64,000 nt of DNA, taken from the IMG/VR virus record IMGVR_UViG_3300002052_000002, positions 32,001-96,000 of that record; one strand, written 5' to 3'. A program made the position numbers and the translations under genes. Below the pieces are notes generated by a model that saw nothing but the letters and a program-made list of their open reading frames with translations, was not told where the DNA came from and did no database searches. Below, in pieces: positions 1 through 42,292 of this stretch (position 1 is the stretch's first letter; every line of letters starts with the position of its first letter). The stretch comes from a virus.

Positions 1-23
1 TCCTTCGAGCATATCTTAACCTC

Positions 24-203
24 CTATACCATCTCAGGGTGTGCCTTAGCTACCCTTTTAGATAGCTTCAGTCCTTCTTGCACTTCCTCTTTCTCTATAG
101 GAATGTTATGTCCACACCCTGAGCAATGGAGATATGAACAGCAAGTGATTAACATTCCTTTACCACAGATAGGACAAGCTTTTGGTTCAATAAATGTATT
201 CAT
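24..203 (-). CDS. small zinc-ribbon protein (59 aa), not in ORF track
   Basis: Manual translation MNTFIEPKACPICGKGML...CSGCGH; ATG at 203 overlaps the stop of the upstream ORF; TAG at 24-26. Confidence 0.7.
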   Translation of the reverse strand: MNTFIEPKACPICGKGMLITCCSYLHCSGCGHNIPIEKEEVQEGLKLSKRVAKAHPEMV

Positions 204-442
204 GGTCGCACTCCCCTTTCTCTTTTATATCTCCCATTTTGCTTGACAAATATCTCTATTTGCCTTGGCTTCTTAACTATGGGAGTGGGATTGCATTTAA
301 CATGGGCGAGCTTATAGGAAGTGGTATGATGACCCAAGACTTTATACATAGTGGGATATAACTCTGGAGATTTTCTGCTAACTAACTGATTGCATATTTG
401 ACAAATCCCTCTGTATCTATGCACAATATCTTTGAGCCTCAT
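200..442 (-). CDS. degenerate HNH-like zinc-binding protein
   Basis: CQIC...LAHVKCN pattern; start moved to ATG 442 behind AAGGGAGGTGA RBS; the usual DH catalytic dyad is absent. Confidence 0.6.
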   Translation of the reverse strand: MRLKDIVHRYRGICQICNQLVSRKSPELYPTMYKVLGHHTTSYKLAHVKCNPTPIVKKPRQIEIFVKQNGRYKRERGVRP

Positions 443-472
443 ATAATCACCTCCCTTATGTGGTAAGTAGAT

Positions 473-513
473 AAAATAAAAGGGGAGCAAGGCCAAGAAC
501 CTTACTCCCCTTT
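473..513 (-). terminator. intrinsic terminator closing the large ncRNA
   Basis: Minus strand AAAGGGGAGTAAGG-TTCTTGG-CCTTGCTCCCC followed by TTTTATTTT. Confidence 0.8.
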
Positions 514-517
514 CTGA

Positions 518-1520
518 TGTTATTCCTTTTTAGTTTCTCTTCGGCATTGGAACAACTACTATATTGAAGCACTCAGTTTCATGTTATCGTGTTGAACTGA
601 GTGGGTAAACCATCACTCTCTATTGACTTAGAAGCTTCCGCTTCTCTCTCTGCATTTTAGTTGACGGCTTTCCACTTTAGTCCGCCTGATTACCAGATTA
701 GGATGAACGCTTGTATTAACTCCCATATCATCCTTACTTGGAGCATATAATCTATGTAGGCTTTTATTCCTTGCCATAGATAGCAGGTAATATTTCAGCT
801 CTCCTTGGTTTATCTCCGAACGTAACCAACTTGGTTACTTGACTGTTTCCCTCTCTCCGCTTACTCAAGTGTATAAGCAGAATTCACGGCTTATTTCTTG
901 CCTTAATCTGTAGCTTAGATAGGCAAGCTACTTTAGGCAATAACACCGTGAGAGAGTAAACCCAAGAGCTTTCTCCGTTACCACGGCTTCGGTATACCCC
1001 GCAGGATAACCAGCGTTTTTGTTGACGGGGAACTCGCATCCATAAGGCGTTGCCTTTATCCGCTGTTACAAGCTGGCATCACCAGTCCATCTGTGCAACT
1101 GGCTTGCTACTTGTTAAGAATCGCTATGTTACAGTAAGGTATCCGCTTAGGGTATATATCCGACCACCTTTCGTATGGCTCCACCCATCATCTTCTAACC
1201 CTCACATAGCTAATAGTTGTCACCAAGCTAATGAAACTTGATGGAAAGTTTAAAGGAGTTTAACCATTTTTCGTTGACTATCGCATCCCTTGTGTGAGAT
1301 ACCAGTTAAGGGATGTCCAAGTTATCCACTCCTCAAGGCAGGCATATAATATTTGAGTCCTCTAAGGTTCGCATTTATCCGAAAGTTAATTGGCATTATG
1401 ACGAATAAATCATTTGAACCGCTCTACCCTTATATGCCACATATATTCAGGCACTTTCAAGCCTTGGCTATATGCAAGCCATATATGATGTTATCTCTAT
1501 GCTTATATTAGCCATAGAGA
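518..1520 (-). ncRNA. large multi-helix structured non-coding RNA (ROOL/GOLLD-like size class, family unassigned); ends approximate
   Basis: About 1 kb without a credible ORF. Long-range closing helices 1211-1226/547-561, 1233-1238/532-537, 1252-1257/524-529; nested helices 570-603, 750-781, 797-812/957-970, 822-838, 885-950, 897-927, 1123-1129/1204-1210, 1284-1315, 1341-1349/1430-1438. Confidence 0.75.
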
Positions 1521-1549
1521 ATTGCATCCATACCATAGAATAGAGTAGG

Positions 1550-1816
1550 TCAGTCTATAAATTGTTTCATATCACCAGCTTTGCGAAGAATAATAGTGGG
1601 AATAAACTTCTTCTTAGCTATTCCCCTTGCATTCTTATTGAATATCTTAATCTTCGCTCTGCCCTTTACCATCAAAGCACCCTCATTACATTTGCCATAC
1701 CGAACTCTATGGCGTATAATATCCCAGTTGGTATGACCCTTAAGGTGTCGCTTTATATGTCCGTAAGCGTGGCGTCTATGATAGCATTTAATTCCTATCA
1801 TCTTTAAGCTCCACAA
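1550..1816 (-). CDS. hypothetical basic protein (true start may be about 1798)
   Basis: ORF track; packed against neighbouring minus-strand ORFs. Confidence 0.55.
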   Translation of the reverse strand: MWSLKMIGIKCYHRRHAYGHIKRHLKGHTNWDIIRHRVRYGKCNEGALMVKGRAKIKIFNKNARGIAKKKFIPTIILRKAGDMKQFID

Positions 1817-1988
1817 AGAGCAGAGTCTTAAGCATCTCCATCACTTCCCAATATGCGGAAGCCTTACCCTCAAAGTAAGCCTTAAGTTGCTTACTATTTC
1901 TCTTCTCTTCTGCTTCTTCCACAATGGTCTGTGCTGTATGATGCTTAGACGCTAAACTCTCCAGTATTCTTTCGATAGCCTTTCTCAT
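1788..1988 (-). CDS. hypothetical helical protein
   Basis: ORF track; RBS AAAGGAG; overlaps upstream stop. Confidence 0.7.
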   Translation of the reverse strand: MRKAIERILESLASKHHTAQTIVEEAEEKRNSKQLKAYFEGKASAYWEVMEMLKTLLFVELKDDRN

Positions 1989-2164
1989 ATGCCACGCTCC
2001 TTTCTGCTACCAATATTCCTGCGTTTTATTTCAGCAGGATAATAGCACTTAAAGTCCTGCGTGGCATTAGGCTTCTTATGGAGCAGATTCATTTTGAGCC
2101 TGTCGCCGCAGGATTGACAGCATTTAGTCGGATGTAAGTCCGTGTTTTTATAAGGCTTCTTCAT
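1985..2164 (-). CDS. hypothetical Cys-containing protein
   Basis: ORF track 1985-2200, start moved to ATG 2164 behind AAAGGGG; CQSC motif. Confidence 0.6.
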   Translation of the reverse strand: MKKPYKNTDLHPTKCCQSCGDRLKMNLLHKKPNATQDFKCYYPAEIKRRNIGSRKERGI

Positions 2165-2291
2165 CGACTTTCCCCTTTCTATCTCCTTTAATCGTTCCAT
2201 ACACTATTAAGTATGCTAATACACACAAGCAAGGAAACCACAAAGGAGATGTGAAGAATAGAATTGTCAGCATAAATGCATATGCTTCCAT
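2148..2291 (-). CDS. small membrane peptide (47 aa), not in ORF track
   Basis: MEAYAFMLTILFFTSPLWFPCLCVLAYLIVYG...; RBS GGGAAGGAG. Confidence 0.65.
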   Translation of the reverse strand: MEAYAFMLTILFFTSPLWFPCLCVLAYLIVYGTIKGDRKGKVDEEAL

Positions 2292-2326
2292 ATTATTCTC
2301 CTTCCCGACTAACCTACTCTATTCAA

Positions 2327-2338
2327 TTTTCAAAGAAC
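2327..2338 (-). promoter_or_regulatory. boxA-like antitermination motif
   Basis: GTTCTTTGAAAA(TTGAATA), matching the rrn-type boxA pattern GYTCTTTGAAAA. Confidence 0.7.
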
Positions 2339-2340
2339 GG

Positions 2341-2455
2341 GGACTCATCAGTGTAGCTATGAGCTACATATAGGGGAGCATCAGATTGATTTGGGTTTGC
2401 ATTCACGCAGTTTAGTTGCGGAAATCAACCTTCAACTGCTCCCTCTATTTCGTCC
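2341..2455 (-). ncRNA. type II hammerhead ribozyme with extended stem III
   Basis: GGAC-GAAA-[UAGAGGGAGCA...UGCUCCCCUA]-UA-[UGUAGCU-CAU-AGCUACA]-CUGAUGA-GUCC; full catalytic core; predicted cleavage after AUA, between 2369 and 2368. Confidence 0.9.
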
Positions 2456-2518
2456 TTCTATGCAGGTTGGAATTGTCCGTATAAGGGTTTAATTGCTGTA
2501 TCCAACCTTCATATAGGA
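2453..2518 (-). other. long bulged hairpin, possible RNase III site
   Basis: TCCT..TATG.AGGTTGGA / TCCAACCT.CATA..AGGA directly after the stop at 2519. Confidence 0.55.
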
Positions 2519-2692
2519 TTAATCGCCGATAGACACCTTCAACTCCTCTTCTAGTAGCGGCTTCAATTCCGCCCTATCCTGTGCATTGAACCCCTTGATT
2601 TCACGAGCGAATTCGCCAACAGACTGGTTATGGAGTTTACCAAAGAATCGGCTACAAGCAGCAGCAAAACTAATCTTCTCTCCGTCTGCCAT
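2519..2692 (-). CDS. hypothetical early protein
   Basis: ORF track; ATG 2692 behind AAAGGGGGTGA RBS. Confidence 0.75.
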   Translation of the reverse strand: MADGEKISFAAACSRFFGKLHNQSVGEFAREIKGFNAQDRAELKPLLEEELKVSIGD

Positions 2693-2717
2693 TCTTGTCA
2701 CCCCTTTCTTATTTGGA

Positions 2718-2728
2718 TTTAAAAGAAC
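2718..2728 (-). promoter_or_regulatory. boxA-like motif
   Basis: GTTCTTTTAAA directly after the 3' arm of the upstream stem. Confidence 0.5.
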
Positions 2729-2732
2729 AATA

Positions 2733-3128
2733 TAGATAAGGGATAAGGGAAGGATAGAAGATGGGAAGTAATCAAGACCATTTAGTAGCGGTATCTAAAC
2801 GCCCTTAGAACCGCCCAGAGCTTTTTCAGTTCGAGCTTATTTAGCATGGCTACATCCCATGAGAAGTGAATAGGGTAGCCATTAAGGGTATACATCGAAT
2901 CGACAGGAACCAACTCTTCTATGACCTTTGGCATTGACTCTTTACCTTTCTTTTTTTGCCAATATATGTCATGAAGAATGGAAGATGTACATCGGTATCT
3001 ATTGACCAACTTCTCATCCAACTCAATCGGCATATTGTTGACAACGATTACCATAGCGTATTCCCCTTTCTGCAGTAAAGGGAACTGCGACTTCCCTTTC
3101 CTTCTTCCTTTCCCTTTCCCTTATTCTA
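2733..3128 (-). repeat. imperfect long-range inverted repeat (purine arm 3090-3128, pyrimidine arm 2733-2769) enclosing ORF 2782-3054
   Basis: UAGAAUAAGGGAAAGGGAAAGGAAGAAGGAAAGGGAAGU versus ACUUCCCAUCUUCUAUCCUUCCCUUAUCCCUUAUCUA. Confidence 0.75.
2782..3054 (-). CDS. hypothetical early protein
   Basis: ORF track; RBS AAAGGGG. Confidence 0.75.
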   Translation of the reverse strand: MVIVVNNMPIELDEKLVNRYRCTSSILHDIYWQKKKGKESMPKVIEELVPVDSMYTLNGYPIHFSWDVAMLNKLELKKLWAVLRAFRYRY

Positions 3129-3140
3129 TTTTCAAAGAGC
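3129..3140 (-). promoter_or_regulatory. boxA-like antitermination motif
   Basis: GCTCTTTGAAAA(TAGAATA). Confidence 0.7.
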
Positions 3141-3164
3141 TGTAAAGTGGTGTCAAATAGGCAT

Positions 3165-3211
3165 AAAAAAAGCCCATATAGACGACCATTATAGTCAATC
3201 CATATGGGCTT
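3165..3211 (-). terminator. intrinsic terminator
   Basis: AAGCCCATATG...TATATGGGC followed by TTTTTTT on the minus strand. Confidence 0.8.
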
Positions 3212-3257
3212 ATATATGCTGTTATAAGCAGGAATCTGATTGACAGATTATATCGTT

Positions 3258-3802
3258 ATATCGCTCGGCTTATAAGACGGTCTATATAGGCAACAAAAGG
3301 TCGCTTAGATGATGTAATCTACAAACAACTTGGTGCAGATTACAAATCAAGCAATTCGGCCAGCAAGGTCATGTTCTTCTTCGTGGACTCCTTGACCTTA
3401 TGCTCAACGGTCTTGACGAAAGATAGGCTAAATCCGCCCTTCACAGGCTTGCCGTATATCTTTCCTTCCCGAATGAGTTTCTGGCTTTCATCGATAGGGT
3501 CATAACCCAGCTCTCGAAGAGTGTCATTTAGCGACTTCATCTTCTGGTCGCCAATGACTGGCTTGAAATAGACGGTATGGCAAGAATAGACGACTCTAGG
3601 CTTGCCATCATTCCCTAACTTAGGTGTGCCATCTTCGTTCTTTAGTGGCACTCCCCTTTCAGCGGCTTTGATATAAGCACTGATAACTGCTTCTGCAGTA
3701 GGCTTCATAGTGTTCTCCTTTCCACTCCATCTGGAGTGCGATAATGAGGGTTTAGTAGCACATAGATAGCCTATACAGACCGCCTAACAAGCCGAACGAT
3801 AT
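3258..3802 (-). repeat. 34-bp long-range inverted repeat (arms 3769-3802 and 3258-3291) enclosing ORF 3340-3708
   Basis: AUAUCGUUCGGCUUGUUAGGCGGUCUGUAUAGGC versus GCCUAUAUAGACCGUCUUAUAAGCCGAGCGAUAU: 29 Watson-Crick pairs, 4 G-U, 1 mismatch. Confidence 0.9.
3340..3708 (-). CDS. hypothetical early protein (first gene of the minus-strand unit)
   Basis: ORF track 122 aa; RBS AAAGGAG. Confidence 0.85.
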   Translation of the reverse strand: MKPTAEAVISAYIKAAERGVPLKNEDGTPKLGNDGKPRVVYSCHTVYFKPVIGDQKMKSLNDTLRELGYDPIDESQKLIREGKIYGKPVKGGFSLSFVKTVEHKVKESTKKNMTLLAELLDL

Positions 3803-3806
3803 GTAG

Positions 3807-3818
3807 TTTAGAAAGAGC
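3807..3818 (-). promoter_or_regulatory. boxA-like motif preceded by two hairpins
   Basis: GCTCTTTCTAAA; hairpins at 3821-3846 and 3851-3867 just upstream. Confidence 0.55.
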
Positions 3819-4117
3819 GTCATCGTTGCATCCGTTTGCACCGATGATTCAGTCGGCCTAACCGACTTTCGACCCCAACTTAACACGATTTTGGTTATCC
3901 ACATCGGTCGGATGGGCAAAAACTCCAATGATTTTCGATACTTCCGAATCCAAATCCACAAATTTCGATATTTCAATCGGAGAAGTGCCACCTAACCAAG
4001 GTTGTGATGAACCACATACCCCCCCACCATGCCTAAACAATCCCTTACACCGACTCCGTTTCATATAAAAACCTCGATATATAACATAGAATGCTTATCT
4101 GGACTGGAAAACCCATA

Positions 4118-4164
4118 AACTTGCCGGAAATTACAACATTTCTTACATAGATAAAGGTATATAT
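4118..4164 (+). promoter_or_regulatory. putative phage promoter/operator motif, copy 1
   Basis: AACTTGCCGGAAATTACAACATTTCTTA...TATATAT; near-identical copy at 47274. Confidence 0.5.
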
Positions 4165-4305
4165 CTTATAGAAGCCAATAACTTGGTTATATATTATTTG
4201 GAAAATGCGCATTGGCGCAATTAATTTGGGCCCCATTGACAATTTGTACCATCCCATCACCTCCTTGAGCGGGAAATCCTCCTTTATGGGGCCCTAAATT
4301 TAAAT

Positions 4306-4557
4306 ATGAAGAGTATAAAGGGTATAGTTACTAGAGAAAGATGTCATCTGTGTAATAAGATAAACTCTGTTGGGTTTTGGGTTCCTAATAAGGTATGGAA
4401 GGCTGTTGTACCCAAGAACCTACAAGAATCTGTATTATGCATAGCCTGTTTTACCGACTTTGCGGATGAAAGACTTATAGAATGGGATGAGGAAATAGCA
4501 TTCTTTCCTGTCAGTCTAATCAATCATCTTAGATTTATAGAGGTTATAGATAAATGA
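4306..4557 (+). CDS. hypothetical zinc-binding protein
   Basis: CHLC...LCIACF. Confidence 0.75.
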   Translation: MKSIKGIVTRERCHLCNKINSVGFWVPNKVWKAVVPKNLQESVLCIACFTDFADERLIEWDEEIAFFPVSLINHLRFIEVIDK

Positions 4558-4657
4558 AGAACTTAATAAAGAGGATAGGGAGATGGATTATGGATTCCCT
4601 GGAGACTGTAGGGAAGATATATGACAGATATCCTTGGTATCCTTTAGGAGGATTATA

Positions 4658-4909
4658 ATGAAAGAGGATTATAAGGATTATATATTAGAGATTGGGCTTC
4701 CGGAAGGATTTAAACTTCTGGACTGTAATAGTGAGATACTAGGATGGAAAGCTCCTAATGGAGAGGCAGCTAGACTTGGTATTATATCCATAGATACATG
4801 CCCTATTAGAATGTTTGTAAAGGTAGTTGGTTTCGAGGACTTCCGAGCTCCTGTAAGATCCTGGGGAGAGAGACGTATATATGATACAGATAAGGCAGAT
4901 CAATCCTAA
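4658..4909 (+). CDS. hypothetical protein
   Basis: ORF track; ATG 4658 behind AGGAGG. Confidence 0.65.
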   Translation: MKEDYKDYILEIGLPEGFKLLDCNSEILGWKAPNGEAARLGIISIDTCPIRMFVKVVGFEDFRAPVRSWGERRIYDTDKADQS

Positions 4910-5318
4910 AGAGTTTGCTGAGGTCTTCCAGGCTGAGAATAAATGGAAGGAACATACTCAGAAGAGATTCCGTAAGGATACCATAGAGATGGTAGCCACA
5001 GGGGAAGGTATAGATTGGATGGCCGTAGCCGAAGAGGACGGTCAGATGGTTGGAATTACCTTCACCATAGAGCGCCAGGGAACTCATTGGGGCTGTACAA
5101 TAGTTAAGAAGGAATATAGGAAGTCAGGTATAGGTAGGAAGTTATTATCCTATAGAAAGAAACATTGCCCTTATAGGGTGGTATCCAAGGTCGGATGTAC
5201 CAATCTGGCCTCCATAAAAGTCTGCTTGCAGGCTGGGATGGAGCTTAAGGATGCTAAGTTAGCGGATCTAAAGGAAGAATTTCCCGATCCGGATCCGATA
5301 TTATTATTAATGGAATAG
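4881..5318 (+). CDS. GNAT family acetyltransferase
   Basis: Motif A VKKEYRKSGIGRKLL and N-x-AS motif. Confidence 0.85.
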   Translation: MIQIRQINPKEFAEVFQAENKWKEHTQKRFRKDTIEMVATGEGIDWMAVAEEDGQMVGITFTIERQGTHWGCTIVKKEYRKSGIGRKLLSYRKKHCPYRVVSKVGCTNLASIKVCLQAGMELKDAKLADLKEEFPDPDPILLLME

Positions 5319-35293: not shown

Positions 35294-38200
35294 ATGCCTT
35301 TAGAGGAACAAGTACAACAGTTAATAGATTTAATTAAAGAAAAAGAAGAACCTACTGTAGCTCCCACACCCACTCCAAAGCCAACGGCTCCGGAAGAGCC
35401 CGCAGCGCCAACAGGAGAAGGAGTCGCCGATGTGTTGGCAATGCAGAGGGAACAGACAGCTCCCTTTATGATAACACAAAGAGATATAGGGGCTTTAGGG
35501 CATCTATTAACTGGTTTTAAACTAGGATTGTATGGTGAATTAGACTTTTTAGATAAAGCATCTGAATGGGTATCTAATCTTACAGGATTAGAGAAAGGCG
35601 GGGTCTTTGGTGAATTAAGAGACAAAGTTGCGCCGGAAGATTACGAATTATCTGACACTGGTCTAACCGCTACCATCCTAAGAGCTGTAGGCATGCTTCC
35701 TGTCCAATTGGGAGCAGCTATGATGGCTGGAGGAATTGGTGGTGGTATCCTTAAAATAGCTAGATTACCACAAGCAGTAATCCTTGGTCGTGGCGGTATA
35801 TCATTAGCCAGAGGTGCAGCAATGCCACTGAAGGGTGCTAGAATGTTTGGCCTAGGAATGCCTACTGGATTTGGTTTAATGGGAGCAGCAAGAGCAGGAG
35901 TCCAACCAGAACCTTCTGCTGCAGAAATGATTAAACATGGTTTGACAGGCGCTGGAATGGGCTTTGGACTAGAGGCTTTGGCTCCTATGAGAGCTATAGC
36001 TCGTATCCCAGGTACAGCTGGTATATTTGGTGGATTAACCGCACTAGAGGGTGCACCTGCTGAGGAGACGATTGCTCAGACTTTAGTTGGAGGTCTTTTG
36101 GGACTTCTTGGTAGACGTCCTAAATATCCTGAAGCTCCACTTCCTACTGCTGAAGTGCCTGCTGCTGCTGGAGTACCTCCAAGAGCACCAGAACAGATGG
36201 GCCTTCCGTTAAGAGTACGTAGACCTATGGCTCCTATAGAAGAAGGAGTAGAGCAACTTCCTCTTCCATTAAGAGTTACTGAACCAATGGAAAGAGAAGC
36301 TCCTCCTAAAGTAGCCGCTCCAGTAGTGGAGAAACCTACTACGGTGGAGGCACAACCAAAGCCTGATTCATTATATATTTCTAGAAATGAGATTATAGAT
36401 GGTTTAGTTGTTAAGAAAGATTTTAGACGAGGAGTACTTGAGCAGCTTTCTGATCCAGTTCTTGCGTGGTTGAATACCTCAAAAACCATAAAGGGATCAC
36501 AAGTAACATTTGATCCTACGACTAAAGCGGTAATAAAGAAGGTTGGTCGCAAGAGAGTCGTAGGTAAAATGACCGATAAAGAACTTGTGGACGAGTCAAA
36601 TACTACGATGTCCATGACTCGCTATAATCAAGTCATGACTGAACTGAAATCCAGACAACTTAGAGACATCGCTCTTGGTAAGGAACGGGTCGATTTAGCG
36701 GAAGAAGTTTCGGTCAGGGAACCAGTACGCAAACCAACAGTAGCTGAAGGAATGGAAGGGGCTACTCCTGTGGAGCGTATTCCTTATAGGAATGCATTAG
36801 TACAGGCTGCATATGGAGAAATTACTGAAGGTTTTCCAGAGAAGCGCTTAACTATAGATGAATTCTTAGAGACTGCTAAAGGTGTATATAAATTAACTCC
36901 AGAAGAACGTATAGAATTAACCAGACTTCTTAATGGAGAAGGATGGAGAATTATTGGCGAAGGGGAAACCCTAGATAAATTGGTTGGACGTAGAATAGAA
37001 GAACAGATGAAGGAACCTCCTAGAGTACCTGAGGAACTGACAGCCGAAGAAATTAAAGCTATAGCTAAACAAGATTGGGAAAAGACACATGATGAATATT
37101 TGAAAAAGGCAAGAGAAGATAAACTTATTCCCAGTGAAGAAGAATATAATAAACTTTCCCTATCTGAGAAAGAAGAAATCACTGATTTTTTGGATGATGT
37201 GTATGAGCTTTATGGTGAGATAGAAGCTTTAAAGGCCCAGAAAAAGTTCGATAAAAAGACAGCGAATACTTATTCAAGGAAAGTAGGGATTGTAAAAGGC
37301 AATATAAATAGGATCTTCAGTGCGGCCATGCGTGAGAGAGCAGGACGAGTAAAGGTCCCTGAAGAGATGGTGAGGAAATATGGGCTTCCTGAAGAGAAGC
37401 CTGAAAAAGTCGAAGTACCGAAGAAAGTTCCTGAAAAGGTGAGAGAGATCACAGGAGCAAAGGCACTTTATATAGATAAAGCTGTTGAGTTATGGGGAGA
37501 GAAAGCCAGGATGAATTTGGCCAGCCTCTCCGTCACAGACTTGATGAGAATTGTAGAAGGCAAGCTTACTCCAGAAGAGTATTCAATTACTCCTAGTGGA
37601 AGATTAGTAAAGATTCCTTCAAAAGTAGCAAAACCTGTTGAAATTAAAGGACTTAAAGTAAGATTCAAAGAACATCCAGAAGATCCAAATATCATGACAG
37701 CTATCGCTGGTGTGCCAGGAGCTGAGGCTATAGGTTTATGGTCAATTCGATTGCCTGTAGAAAGAAAACCTGGGGAGAAAGTTGGATGGTATAGCATAGA
37801 AGCGGATGTTACCCCTGAATTTACACGAAAGGGAATAGGCACTGCTATGTTTGATGCTATTGAAAAACAATATGGTGAACATTTAGGTAGAGTAGGAGAA
37901 CTTACTGGAGCTGGAGCCAAATTTGTTGAGGGCCTAAAAAGAAAAGGAAGAAAATATAAGGATATTGATGTTGAAGAGGTAGGAATAGAACCAGAAGCTC
38001 CTCCTAAAGTAGAAGCTCCAATCAAAGCTCCAAAATTGAGTAAAAAGGAAGAAGCTGGGATTAAACTTGAGCTTACTACTATTCGAGAGAAGTATACTGG
38101 TAGACCAGATTTAGAGAAAATTGTTGCTTCATACGAAAAGCATAGACGAAGTGGCTTGAATATTAAAGCTGCTGTAGAGGCCATGCGGCAGGAAATAGGT

Positions 38201-41200
38201 CTTCCTGAGAAAAAGGAAGCCGTTACTAAACCAGAAGCTTTAACAGAAGGAGAAAAGATTATCACTGGCCTCAGAGAAGAATTAAAGGCTGAAGGCAAGA
38301 AGACTCCTGAAGAAGTTCTTCGAGAAAAAGCCAAAGAACCTACAGAGGCTGAGACTTGGGCTGTGCCTGAAGAGCCAAAGAAAGCTCCAGAAGGCGACAT
38401 TGCGATGGAAGTCACGATGATTAGAACACGGTATAAAGATCGTGCCAATGTAGATAAGATGGCTGAATTATATGAACGATACAGGAAAGAGGGTCTTGAT
38501 GTGCAGGAAGCAGCACAACGTGCTGGCAAGGAAGTTGGATGGGAGGTTAAAGCTCCTGCTCCAAAAGCTGCACCTACTAGAGGAAAGCCCTCTGCTGAGA
38601 AGGCTACGGCTAAATTAGAAAAAGAAATAGATAAGGAACTTAGAGACCTATATAGTTTAGCACTTAATAGAGCCTTAGGGGAAGGATTATCTGAAACTGA
38701 AGCTATTACAAAAGCAGACGCTGCTCTTTCTAAACCAGAGGTTAAAACCTATGTAGAAAATCGTAGGAAAGGAATGAGTAGGGACGAAGCAACTCAGAAA
38801 GTTAGGGATAAGACTACTACTAGAGTTATTCTTCGAAAATCAGATGGAACAGAGCATGTAGTTACTAAGAAAGTTGCTAAGGATGTTGCAGATGCTGCGG
38901 TCGAACAAGTAGATAAGACTGTTGAAACTGCTGTCAAAATGGGAGCAGATCCTGAAATTGCTAAACAGGTTGCAGATTATAGACCCGAAGTAAAATCAGA
39001 TACTTTGATACGGCCAGAAGGGATGGAGCATTATCCAAATCCCAACGAGATCTTTATAAGCGCAATACTATCTCCGACGAAACTGGCGGAGGGATTGCCA
39101 AAGATAAAGAATGAAGTTAAACTCCTTACAGATCAATTAAATCGTATGCTTTCGTCAGCAGAGGGTATAAGAAAGGAGCTTGACAAGCCTGGCTTAAATT
39201 TGGACAAGAGAATGGATTTAGAAGCCAAGATTAGGGCTCAAGCCAATCTTAAGAACCAAATAGTTAGAGAACTAAGTGAGTATACTGCGGCTGCCAGATA
39301 TCTAGAAGAGAATATGAAAGCGGCCCCACAAGCACTTAAAGTTGAAAAACGCTTCCAAGATGCTCAAGGTGGAGTTACAATTATCTCTGAAAAGATTCCT
39401 GGTGGAGACAAGTTCTACATGTTGCAGGATGAGATGGGGCATGCTCCTCATATAGATTCTAGAGTTAAATATGCTGGAGCTGCTGAACTTGCGGAATCAA
39501 AAGATGAAGTTAAAGTTAAGATCTTAAATATAGATAAGAATATTGATCCTAGATTCGGTCGTATGCTTCTAGATTCAATACAAGAGAAGTATATGATGGG
39601 AGAGAAAGGAAAGAAAGTAACACGAGAGCCAGGAGCAGGAGGCTCTATATGGGATGCCGCAGGGGATAAAGATGCGGATAGAATTGTAGAAGAAGTCGGA
39701 TATGATAAAACGAGTAAAGAAGCTGTTGGTAAAGAAGGAGCGTATCAAGAGCAGGGATTACTAGAGAAGTTTTGGTATTCTTGGAGAGGCTATCCAGGAG
39801 AGCGAGAACAATTTAGAACAGCCATGAGAGCTGCTCATGATATTCGTGGTAATATAGATCCTTGGTTGACTGGTGTGGAATCTCGACGAGTTCCTACTAA
39901 AGAAGATATGGTTTCTGTGCTTGATTTAGGATCAGATCCTGTATCAAGTAAAAATCCTATAATTGCATGGGCTGCTGGATTAGCCAAACAGCAAGAAGAA
40001 AGAATGAGCATATATATTAAGAGAGCCACAAAATATTTAGATGAGCATATGGGGTGGTTAAGACAGGATAAAGCAAAGAATAAAGAATTCGTATACCATA
40101 TGCATGGCATAAGGAAGTCTAATGATCCTCGTATATTAGAGACTGAGAAAGCCGTTAGAAGGGTTGAAGATGATGTTGCCCAGATGTTCGATTTGGAGAA
40201 ACGAGGTCTATATAGGAAAGGGCACTTTGGTTTGATTATAGATCGACAAAAAGCTTGGGATTACTTTAGTCAGCCACTAGCTCTGGCAAGCGAATTTAGA
40301 GAATTACCAGTAAAGATTCAAGCAATGTTGACGGAGAATAATTGGGTAAGAGCTAAGTACTTAGTTGACAAGTTTAAAGTTTGGGATAAGATTCCTAGGG
40401 AAGAGAAGGCATGGATTGAAGATCATATTTTTCCTTGGGGAGGCATATTCACTGATTGGATGAAATCTCCTGGATTCTTACAGAGGATGTTGCCTAAGGA
40501 ATATCATGTGAAATACTTCCAGGAAAGAAAATCTAATATGGAATTCTTGGCAAAAGAAGACGCCTGGAATACTATGCAGATATATCTACATAGTGCTGTT
40601 AGAGGCGGGATGTGGAATGATTATTTGCAGACAGTACGTCCAGTAATAAATCAATTGAATTTTGCCAATAAACCAGGGAGCGTTAGACATTACTTAGAAA
40701 CCTATGTTAAGAACCTAGTGTATCCTGATACTGGATATCTGGATACTAAGTGGAATTCTTTAGTGATGGAAGTCGGTAGAATTCTTGGACGGGATTTTGG
40801 TGGAGCGGCTTACTTTATGCCAAGAAAACTAGCTGCCATGTATGGCAGAGCATTATATAGAGGAGCTTTAGGACCAGATACTGCAGTACGAAATTTAACA
40901 CAAACTCTACATACTTGGGCAAACTCTGGGGAGCTCTCTACTTTAACTGGTTTGAGAGACTACCTGCATGGTATCACTACTCAGAAACTAGAGAAGGTTG
41001 GAGTGAAAGTAAAAGTTCCTAAGAAATTCAAAGATTTCAAAGAATATTATGACATAGTTGACGAGTTTTTAGGGCATGATTTTGAGAAATTGTATAAGAA
41101 TGATAAGACCACTATGGATAATATAAGGAAGGCATCTACTTGGATTACAAGGATGGCCCTATTCCCTATGCATCTTACTGAAAATATTAATAAAGGTATT

Positions 41201-42292
41201 GCATACATGGCAGGATTGCATGAAGGAATAGAAAAAGGATTAGATTATAGAACTTCACACTTAATAGGAGTAAGTAAAGCTTCTAAATTCCAAAACTTCG
41301 ATTTAAGAATGACAGAAGCACAATGGTATGCGGTAAATAAGATGACGGAGTCACAATATGGGTACACTACAGTCCATACATCTCCTTATCTATATGGTAC
41401 TGGAAAGAAGTTCTTTACTCCATTTTGGTCATTCCCTTTGAAAACTTTCCAATTCTTAGGAAATGGCATTAAAGAAAGTTTTATATCTGAAGATGCAGCC
41501 AGGTTAACTAGATTCTTAGCCCTAACAGGATTCTTCGCATCTGCTCCAGTTATACTAGCTGAGATGCTAGGAGTTGATACATTCGCTCTTTGGGGCAAAG
41601 GAGCACTCCCCTTTAATATCTACCCAGCCTGGATGAAGGGAATGGGAGATATCTATACTGCCCTTGGTGGGAATGATCCAAGTTACTTAGACCAAGAGCG
41701 GGCACAAAGAGCTGGTATGAGTTTTGTTGGATTATTGGCTGTTCCACAATGGAGAGCAGGGAAAAAGCTTATAAAGAATATCGAAGATCTACAAAAAGGA
41801 TATGAGACTTGGGGTCCTGGAGAGCATCCATTTAACTCGATTAATATAGCTTCAGTAATTCTAAAGATGTGTGGATTCCCTCCGATAGAGTCTAAAGAAG
41901 CTAGAGACCTATTGAAGGAACTTCGTAGAGAAGAAATGAGTGTCTACAAGAAGCATGATTATGTAAAGAAAATTGCAGATATATATGAGAAAGGTGGCAT
42001 GAAAGCCATTGACAGTGTTAGAAAGATAATTGGTAAGGCTAGAGAGGAGGGTATAAATATTAGGCCACAGGATATATCTAGTTATCGTAGATTAAGAGAA
42101 CTAGACATCTACACTATGAAGCTACTCCGTGGTAAGAAAGAGCTTAGAAGAGGAATCTGGGGAGAAAGGCTACGAGAGGCTAGAGAAGAATATCTTGGAA
42201 AGAAGAAGTATGGTACACGACCTATCTGGTCATTACCAAGACAAATAGAACCTAGGGAAGAGGAGAGCTTCCAGGGTATAGGAGAAGAATAA
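35294..42292 (+). CDS. giant polyvalent internal virion protein with embedded GNAT-like domain
   Basis: 2332 aa; hydrophobic Gly-rich N-terminal block; VTPEFTRKGIGTAMF motif. Confidence 0.7.
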   Translation: MPLEEQVQQLIDLIKEKEEPTVAPTPTPKPTAPEEPAAPTGEGVADVLAMQREQTAPFMITQRDIGALGHLLTGFKLGLYGELDFLDKASEWVSNLTGLEKGGVFGELRDKVAPEDYELSDTGLTATILRAVGMLPVQLGAAMMAGGIGGGILKIARLPQAVILGRGGISLARGAAMPLKGARMFGLGMPTGFGLMGAARAGVQPEPSAAEMIKHGLTGAGMGFGLEALAPMRAIARIPGTAGIFGGLTALEGAPAEETIAQTLVGGLLGLLGRRPKYPEAPLPTAEVPAAAGVPPRAPEQMGLPLRVRRPMAPIEEGVEQLPLPLRVTEPMEREAPPKVAAPVVEKPTTVEAQPKPDSLYISRNEIIDGLVVKKDFRRGVLEQLSDPVLAWLNTSKTIKGSQVTFDPTTKAVIKKVGRKRVVGKMTDKELVDESNTTMSMTRYNQVMTELKSRQLRDIALGKERVDLAEEVSVREPVRKPTVAEGMEGATPVERIPYRNALVQAAYGEITEGFPEKRLTIDEFLETAKGVYKLTPEERIELTRLLNGEGWRIIGEGETLDKLVGRRIEEQMKEPPRVPEELTAEEIKAIAKQDWEKTHDEYLKKAREDKLIPSEEEYNKLSLSEKEEITDFLDDVYELYGEIEALKAQKKFDKKTANTYSRKVGIVKGNINRIFSAAMRERAGRVKVPEEMVRKYGLPEEKPEKVEVPKKVPEKVREITGAKALYIDKAVELWGEKARMNLASLSVTDLMRIVEGKLTPEEYSITPSGRLVKIPSKVAKPVEIKGLKVRFKEHPEDPNIMTAIAGVPGAEAIGLWSIRLPVERKPGEKVGWYSIEADVTPEFTRKGIGTAMFDAIEKQYGEHLGRVGELTGAGAKFVEGLKRKGRKYKDIDVEEVGIEPEAPPKVEAPIKAPKLSKKEEAGIKLELTTIREKYTGRPDLEKIVASYEKHRRSGLNIKAAVEAMRQEIGLPEKKEAVTKPEALTEGEKIITGLREELKAEGKKTPEEVLREKAKEPTEAETWAVPEEPKKAPEGDIAMEVTMIRTRYKDRANVDKMAELYERYRKEGLDVQEAAQRAGKEVGWEVKAPAPKAAPTRGKPSAEKATAKLEKEIDKELRDLYSLALNRALGEGLSETEAITKADAALSKPEVKTYVENRRKGMSRDEATQKVRDKTTTRVILRKSDGTEHVVTKKVAKDVADAAVEQVDKTVETAVKMGADPEIAKQVADYRPEVKSDTLIRPEGMEHYPNPNEIFISAILSPTKLAEGLPKIKNEVKLLTDQLNRMLSSAEGIRKELDKPGLNLDKRMDLEAKIRAQANLKNQIVRELSEYTAAARYLEENMKAAPQALKVEKRFQDAQGGVTIISEKIPGGDKFYMLQDEMGHAPHIDSRVKYAGAAELAESKDEVKVKILNIDKNIDPRFGRMLLDSIQEKYMMGEKGKKVTREPGAGGSIWDAAGDKDADRIVEEVGYDKTSKEAVGKEGAYQEQGLLEKFWYSWRGYPGEREQFRTAMRAAHDIRGNIDPWLTGVESRRVPTKEDMVSVLDLGSDPVSSKNPIIAWAAGLAKQQEERMSIYIKRATKYLDEHMGWLRQDKAKNKEFVYHMHGIRKSNDPRILETEKAVRRVEDDVAQMFDLEKRGLYRKGHFGLIIDRQKAWDYFSQPLALASEFRELPVKIQAMLTENNWVRAKYLVDKFKVWDKIPREEKAWIEDHIFPWGGIFTDWMKSPGFLQRMLPKEYHVKYFQERKSNMEFLAKEDAWNTMQIYLHSAVRGGMWNDYLQTVRPVINQLNFANKPGSVRHYLETYVKNLVYPDTGYLDTKWNSLVMEVGRILGRDFGGAAYFMPRKLAAMYGRALYRGALGPDTAVRNLTQTLHTWANSGELSTLTGLRDYLHGITTQKLEKVGVKVKVPKKFKDFKEYYDIVDEFLGHDFEKLYKNDKTTMDNIRKASTWITRMALFPMHLTENINKGIAYMAGLHEGIEKGLDYRTSHLIGVSKASKFQNFDLRMTEAQWYAVNKMTESQYGYTTVHTSPYLYGTGKKFFTPFWSFPLKTFQFLGNGIKESFISEDAARLTRFLALTGFFASAPVILAEMLGVDTFALWGKGALPFNIYPAWMKGMGDIYTALGGNDPSYLDQERAQRAGMSFVGLLAVPQWRAGKKLIKNIEDLQKGYETWGPGEHPFNSINIASVILKMCGFPPIESKEARDLLKELRREEMSVYKKHDYVKKIADIYEKGGMKAIDSVRKIIGKAREEGINIRPQDISSYRRLRELDIYTMKLLRGKKELRRGIWGERLREAREEYLGKKKYGTRPIWSLPRQIEPREEESFQGIGEE

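Follow-up and report, generated by a model that had tools for sequence, protein, structure and literature searches.

What does an otherwise densely coding phage genome hold in a kilobase of DNA that contains no gene? The question is raised by a tract near the beginning of the stretch analysed here (the window, 64,000 nucleotides long), which consists of bases 32,001-96,000 of the complete 112.9-kb IMG/VR virus record IMGVR_UViG_3300002052_000002. Large phage RNAs of the ROOL and GOLLD kind are among the least understood of RNA classes, each new family offering a handle on their role in infection, and a preliminary description of the window had proposed that the tract specifies a large multi-helix non-coding RNA, either a divergent member of such a class or a new one.

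The record comes from metagenomes of marine sediment and seawater, has direct terminal repeats at its ends, and represents an uncultured phage. Its recognisable virion and packaging genes are those for the large terminase, the portal and the major head protein; the portal shares at most ~25% identity with its counterpart in any cultured phage, and in GenBank it comes closest to podovirus portals or adaptors. A weak match to PagL (lipid A 3-O-deacylase; genome 28,386-28,952, minus strand; E 7.6e-5, right at the Pfam cut-off) hints at a Gram-negative host. The virion module also contains a 2332-aa protein (window 35294-42292, plus strand) that belongs to no PHROG family and is conserved in relatives, at 22-27% identity, only in its C-terminal third (from residue ~1500-1600).

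The tract lies near the start of a long leftward gene array. Genes to the left of window position ~4100 are on the minus strand, and the array extends ~32 kb further past the start of the window; contrary to its earlier placement, the tract therefore does not close the early unit. Public gene calls adjoin it on both sides and none enters it. The two flanking ORFs (Table 1) are themselves orphans: the upstream one forms a cluster of its own among 5.8 billion proteins, the downstream one is a singleton in the same set, and neither belongs to a Pfam or PHROG family. Downstream of the tract, in the same early leftward array, are genes for two proteins concerned with RNA: a Ro60-like protein with DUF2828 and DUF7788 domains (genome 25,272-26,804, minus strand; E 2e-34 and 1.5e-28) and an RNA_ligase-family protein of the Rnl2 type (genome 18,179-19,096, minus strand; E 1.6e-14).

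The tract has no coding capacity. Each of its six frames carries 18-23 stops over 345 codons, the longest ORFs are of 63 aa (plus strand) and 51 aa (minus strand), and none of the alternative codes tried (code 4 with TGA as sense, TAG=Q, TAA=Q) opens a credible frame, in agreement with the earlier statement that neither strand has a credible ORF. The codon-usage score is negative throughout, and a single weak SD+ATG candidate, for 32 aa, lies inside a hairpin. Six-frame tblastn of the tract against three relatives and the rest of its own genome finds no protein remnant below E 0.04. This is the sole gap of at least 450 nt between ORFs of at least 55 aa in the entire genome, and its G+C content (0.45-0.48) is above that of the flanks (0.35-0.40) and the genome mean (0.39). 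The strong terminator that had been seen directly 3' of the tract is confirmed (Table 1). A sigma-70-type promoter is not found directly upstream, which counts against an independent RNA gene.

Internal organization was also considered. An internal duplication or modular array was rejected, there being only short two-copy matches. One 16-nt motif, CCGUCAAC(U/A)AAAA(U/C)GC, occurs twice on the minus strand, at 652-667 and 1013-1028, at a distance of 361 nt from each other; when IMG/VR was scanned for this motif, chance matches alone came back. An antisense target elsewhere in the genome was likewise rejected, no match to the tract being longer than 18 nt.

Table 1. Features of the tract, its surroundings and the sister-phage RNA. 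Positions refer to the window except for G002 and G003; z-scores are relative to dinucleotide-preserving shuffles.
Feature	Position	Strand	Properties
ORF-free tract	515-1549	-	From stop codon of 83-aa ORF to terminator; all six frames closed, without SD-led ORF
Upstream 83-aa basic ORF	1550-1801	-	SD present; directly 5' of tract
Downstream 80-aa ORF	200-442	-	After terminator; own SD
Rho-independent terminator	478-514	-	17 pairs, 7 of them G-C, then TTTTATTTTAT (T-run); pairing probability ~1.0
3' half	518-1017	-	-152.2 kcal/mol; z -5.21; 0/100 shuffles as good
3' half, opposite strand	518-1017	+	-127.4 kcal/mol; z -2.41; 1/100 shuffles as good
Core structured domain (178 nt, four-way junction)	795-972	-	-65.1 kcal/mol; z -5.54; 0/200 shuffles as good
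3' hairpin cluster	560-745	-	z -2.86; 1/200 shuffles as good; P 0.83-0.96
5' half, non-coding, not significantly structured	1018-1549	-	z -1.20; 12/100 shuffles as good
Segment 983-1170	983-1170	-	z -1.10; 25/200 shuffles as good
Hammerhead-like three-way junction	2341-2460	-	GGAC-GAAA ... CUGAUGA-GUCC, stem II open; z -5.20
Sister-phage RNA, G002	~95,640-96,490	+	~850 nt; ends at own terminator
Sister-phage RNA, G003	core 960-1475		Conserved, ORF-free

Folding was evaluated against dinucleotide-preserving shuffles (100 or 200 per segment). In the 3' half of the tract the minus strand folds 25 kcal/mol more stably than the plus strand, a difference that favours a minus-strand RNA over a DNA palindrome. 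(A script that gave 518-1017 a value of -7.4 put ten control 500-nt windows, taken from other parts of the genome on the same strand, between z -2.1 and +2.2.) Most of this folding signal comes from the 178-nt core domain, for which the MFE structure and the centroid are the same and helix probabilities in the full-length ensemble are 0.93-0.98. Within a closing stem of 17 bp (7+6+4) lie a long arm of 7+6+8 bp, a hairpin of 9 bp, a purine-rich linker of 17 nt and a hairpin of 7 bp. This domain corresponds to a multibranch subdomain of the preliminary description (957-970/797-812 around 885-950 and 822-838, with 856-881 as a further element), which is thus among the secure parts of the fold. 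The hairpin cluster closer to the terminator comprises 734-700, 670-607 (holding a GGAA-tetraloop hairpin at 645-630) and 603-570; the last of these had been predicted and is recovered with P 0.83, and another predicted hairpin, 750-781, is marginal (P 0.53). Pairing with an 11-nt GAAA receptor was rejected: both of its halves exist, but not opposite each other.

The 5' half has isolated hairpins at 1520-1494, 1315-1284 and 1103-1081, and local windows over 961-1280 have z ~0. The 5' domains that had been proposed survive at 1284-1315 (P 0.93) and as a hairpin at 1494-1520 (P 0.91), but 1018-1549 as a whole folds like shuffled sequence. The long-range architecture predicted for the tract shifts with the boundaries that are chosen. 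Three stacked helices (1252-1257/524-529, 1233-1238/532-537 and 1211-1226/547-561), which had been thought to close a domain of ~740 nt, enter the MFE structure solely when the sequence is cut at 1260 and have P 0.00-0.02 in the full-length ensemble; the closed domain, which depends on them, is not supported, and helix 1204-1210/1123-1129 (P 0.01) is not confirmed either. An alternative terminal stem, 1549-1521/525-556, takes their place with P 0.4-0.66; 12.6% of the control duplexes drawn from this genome are as strong, and as a processing stem it was rejected as not significant against these controls.

Folding beyond that of shuffled sequence is therefore seen for 518-1017 (z -5.2) and for 795-972 (z -5.5) and not for 1018-1549 (z -1.2), implying a structured block of ~500 nt at the 3' end of a 1-kb non-coding tract. 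A single RNA of 0.75-1 kb, as originally envisaged, is not supported; excess structure is confined to this block (1017-518), in which the four-way-junction domain is accompanied by three more hairpins and that of the terminator. Nor does the tract resemble a known RNA. Rfam 15 cmscan of the whole window gives no match at gathering score, whether to ROOL, GOLLD, OLE, HEARO, introns, RNase P or tmRNA, and a permissive scan (E<=10) of 300-1800 gives unrelated noise alone (E 0.17-6). A structured non-coding RNA on the minus strand, outside every known family, fits the lack of ORFs, the raised G+C, the terminator, the want of an Rfam match and a 3' half that folds better than chance and asymmetrically between the strands; to that extent the preliminary description stands, and its size and closed architecture are not supported. 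The tract probably makes a non-coding RNA.

Homologues of the tract were sought widely. None was found among 50,697 GenBank phages (blastn, distant mode), in three whole relatives reached via the capsid protein (G001-G003, 102-110 kb; BLAST and nhmmer), or in three unrelated phages that share the DUF2828 gene. A single-sequence CM (R2) of the 178-nt domain finds nothing in 522 kb of relatives and loci or in five distant relatives. Exact-motif scans located 57 loci in IMG/VR, all of them chance by nhmmer, and 10 in GTDB contigs, likewise all chance. A portal profile finds more relatives in IMG/VR, none long enough on the side of the tract, and none in GTDB contigs; metagenome contigs, scanned with the terminase protein alone, yielded one contig of 9.9 kb that stops short of the locus. 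What does recur is the tract itself, identical and without variants in contigs of four other DNA sequencing runs from three further studies; no RNA dataset is among the public sequencing runs listed as carrying the sequence. The want of a homologue in these collections and the identity of the public reads leave no variation in which pairs could covary.

A second RNA in the same phage lineage (within which portals are 68-72% identical) bears on the question. Two of the relatives, G002 (IMGVR_UViG_3300031949_000008) and G003 (IMGVR_UViG_3300036760_000327), have in common, within this leftward early operon, a stretch of ~0.5-0.85 kb that is free of ORFs and alignable at the nucleotide level (nhmmer E 1e-17) between genomes whose proteins are 35-70% identical. 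RNAalifold of the two-sequence alignment predicts 79 pairs, all of them kept in both sequences; 26 of the 79 are changed on both sides, compared with 1-6 when the partners are slid. One hairpin swaps GGGG/CCC(A) for CCCC/GGGG around an invariant loop, GAUNNAGACUAA. The conserved core is made up of a helix enclosing GGAAAAACUAA, this covarying hairpin, and then CAACGAG...AUGUCGGCC. Folding scores are z -4.7 for the G002 core, -5.9 for G002 at full length and -3.1 for the G003 core. There is no match to an Rfam family or a GenBank phage and no further member in IMG/VR; the two sequences appear to make up an RNA family that has not been described before.

In G002 the slot of this RNA is between early genes Y and X. 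Their homologues in the window (26-36% identity with G002 or G003) are at 3340-3708 (Y, minus strand, 122 aa) and 2519-2701 (X, minus strand, 60 aa). The space between the two (2701-3340) is filled in the window by a 90-aa ORF. The window's element is, instead, ~1 kb downstream of X, past three further ORFs. The two RNAs have their lineage, operon, strand sense, lack of ORFs, absence from Rfam and similar z-scores in common; the window's element differs in having no covariation support. They do not appear to be related in sequence. A CM of the sister-phage core (R1), run with filters off on window 1-5000, reaches at best 14 bits, with the core deleted; the nhmmer profile finds nothing in the same 5 kb; and the sister-phage motif pattern is not found in the window's element with up to 3 mismatches allowed. 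The lineage would thus keep large early RNAs, and comparison of the sequences suggests that the window's element is a different one. The size of its folding signal, the same as that of an RNA supported by covariation, counts in favour of a structured RNA.

The explanation that best accommodates these findings, and that we think has about an even chance of being right, is that 515-1549 (minus strand) is the non-coding 3' part of an early transcript, of which the structured ~500-nt block persists as a stable RNA serving as scaffold or decoy. The element is plausibly a new, orphan structured RNA domain of ~0.5 kb ending a 1-kb non-coding tail. Its orientation, shared with the flanking genes, and its strong terminator count for this explanation, as does the RNA-centred gene content (the DUF2828+DUF7788 protein and the RNA ligase). 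(G002 and G003 have this ligase at 58-64% identity. The DUF2828 gene is missing from these two and 60-70% identical in three otherwise unrelated phage contigs.) What counts against it is the random-like folding of 1018-1549, the shifting of the architecture with the boundaries, and the want of homologues, which leaves the fold with no sign of selection. The neighbouring genes are orphans as well, and the segment as a whole might have been acquired recently and be poorly adapted.

A further point in favour is found ~0.8 kb upstream of the tract, where a three-way junction with a hammerhead-like arrangement (Table 1) folds with a z-score of -5.2. It has a long stem III, into which a hairpin with a CCGCAA motif is inserted, and a stem I hairpin; cleavage is predicted at 2369/2368. 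The Rfam hammerhead models do not match 2341-2460 even at E<=5, and we regard the element as a lead, a candidate hammerhead. Self-cleavage at the predicted site would set the 5' end of an RNA that ends in the tract.

The sequence of events may be pictured as follows. Transcription of the leftward early operon would start in the divergent promoter region around window 4100-4900, and the hammerhead-like element (2460-2341) might cut the transcript, leaving an RNA of ~1.9 kb that consists of three tiny ORFs followed by the structured block and its terminator. The block might shield this RNA from 3' exonucleases, or might itself survive as a processed stable RNA; in either form it would work as an RNA, most likely by binding protein, as a scaffold or a decoy, in early infection. 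Its partners might be host proteins that bind or degrade RNA, or the RNA machinery of the phage itself, the Ro60-like protein and the Rnl2-type RNA ligase. Expression and processing of the tract RNA, and any function, are what we infer.

The tract might, on a more modest account that we consider rather unlikely, be a long structured 3' UTR and nothing else, in which the hairpins and the junction domain, as 3'-exonuclease blocks or RNase III sites, govern the stability or processing of the messages of the small early genes upstream. Its position directly after three co-oriented small ORFs and its end at an operon-internal terminator would be those of a 3' UTR, no promoter of its own has been detected, and only part of it is structured. 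However, 1 kb far exceeds what a stabiliser needs (the terminator hairpin alone would do), and a spare kilobase is rarely kept by phage genomes; a hairpin for processing need not be as elaborate as the four-way junction, and the sister phages hold in this operon a large non-coding RNA whose structure is under clear selection. The known stable RNAs that are derived from 3' UTRs or otherwise processed from phage early operons are tens to a few hundred nt long. The window's element is like them in its putative co-transcription with upstream genes, its terminator boundary and the possible ribozyme or RNase site upstream; its 1-kb non-coding tail and 178-nt four-way junction are unusual in such company.

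The tract might also do nothing at all, as filler left by one or more decayed accessory genes or by foreign DNA recently acquired, with folds that are fortuitous. Genome positions ~24.5-39 kb are hypervariable among relatives, neither the segment nor the ORF on either side of it has a relative, and half of the tract has no excess structure. Still, decayed coding sequence would not be expected to fold with z -5.2 to -5.5 and a strand preference (against -2.1 to +2.2 for the controls), the six-frame translation of the tract resembles no protein in three relatives or the rest of the genome, its G+C is raised instead of drifting toward the A+T-rich genome mean, and the same sequence, unaltered, is present in runs from several studies. 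We judge filler to be unlikely.

A very divergent representative of a class already known (ROOL, GOLLD, a group I or II intron, or the sister-phage RNA), beyond the reach of the models, is very unlikely. ROOL (RF03087) and GOLLD (RF01998) are usually found next to tRNA genes in phages or prophages; to our knowledge neither has been assigned a function. The window's element resembles them in being phage-encoded, ORF-free, several hundred nt long, multi-helical and higher in G+C than its genome, and a large RNA is present in the same operon of G002 and G003. Against this, the element matches no Rfam family at gathering score and has no covariance-model match even with permissive filters, leaving the proposal of a divergent ROOL or GOLLD unsupported, and the sister-phage CM and nhmmer profile are silent over the first 5 kb of the window. 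The 64-kb window contains no tRNA gene (ARAGORN, and likewise Rfam), and no interrupted gene adjoins the tract as would befit an intron. The source also differs, being an uncultured marine-sediment phage with a podovirus-like portal and not a Firmicutes prophage, and with only ~500 nt of excess structure and no family there is no conserved core to set beside theirs. Both ROOL and GOLLD are described as RNA-only multimers in a cryo-EM preprint (bioRxiv 10.1101/2024.12.08.627333).

Least probable of all is an element that acts as DNA (a replication origin, a recombination or packaging site, a promoter array): a large intergenic tract in a dense genome might be one, and the plus strand over the whole tract also folds somewhat better than its shuffles (z -5.5, with few shuffles), but iterons, direct-repeat families and an A+T-rich unwinding region are all missing (repeats are limited to short two-copy matches), the G+C content exceeds the genome mean, the ends of the genome, as direct terminal repeats, are situated elsewhere, and the 25 kcal/mol advantage of the minus strand comes from G-U pairs, which are meaningless in duplex DNA.

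The stable early RNA thus preferred is a single-sequence candidate, smaller and less integrated than had been claimed. Seen together with the sister-phage RNA it acquires a wider interest: throughout this uncultured lineage, the operon expressed first seems to have room set aside for RNAs of 0.5-1 kb, one of which, that of the sister phages, has covariation support already. It is possible, if less likely than not, that a new family of large phage non-coding RNAs has its first member in the window's element, that the phages of the lineage each carry in the early operon a large structured RNA, non-homologous and interchangeable (the window's phage having one type, G002 and G003 another), and that these, perhaps released by a hammerhead, work with the RNA ligase and Ro60-like proteins as a machine or decoy of early infection. 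If the window's element were confirmed, unrelated RNAs would be filling the same niche in early infection, pointing to a general RNA-based function in takeover or counter-defence.

One minor observation concerns motifs of the kind found in Y RNAs. A Y-RNA-like handle (a closing stem followed by (U/A)C(A/C)GCAA) was looked for in the tract, and CAGCAA does not occur on the minus strand of 515-1549. Upstream, at 2383-2508 (minus strand), two hairpins share a common frame, AAGGUUGNNU-(A/U)(A/C)C(A/C)GCAA ... CAAYCUG, that is handle-like.
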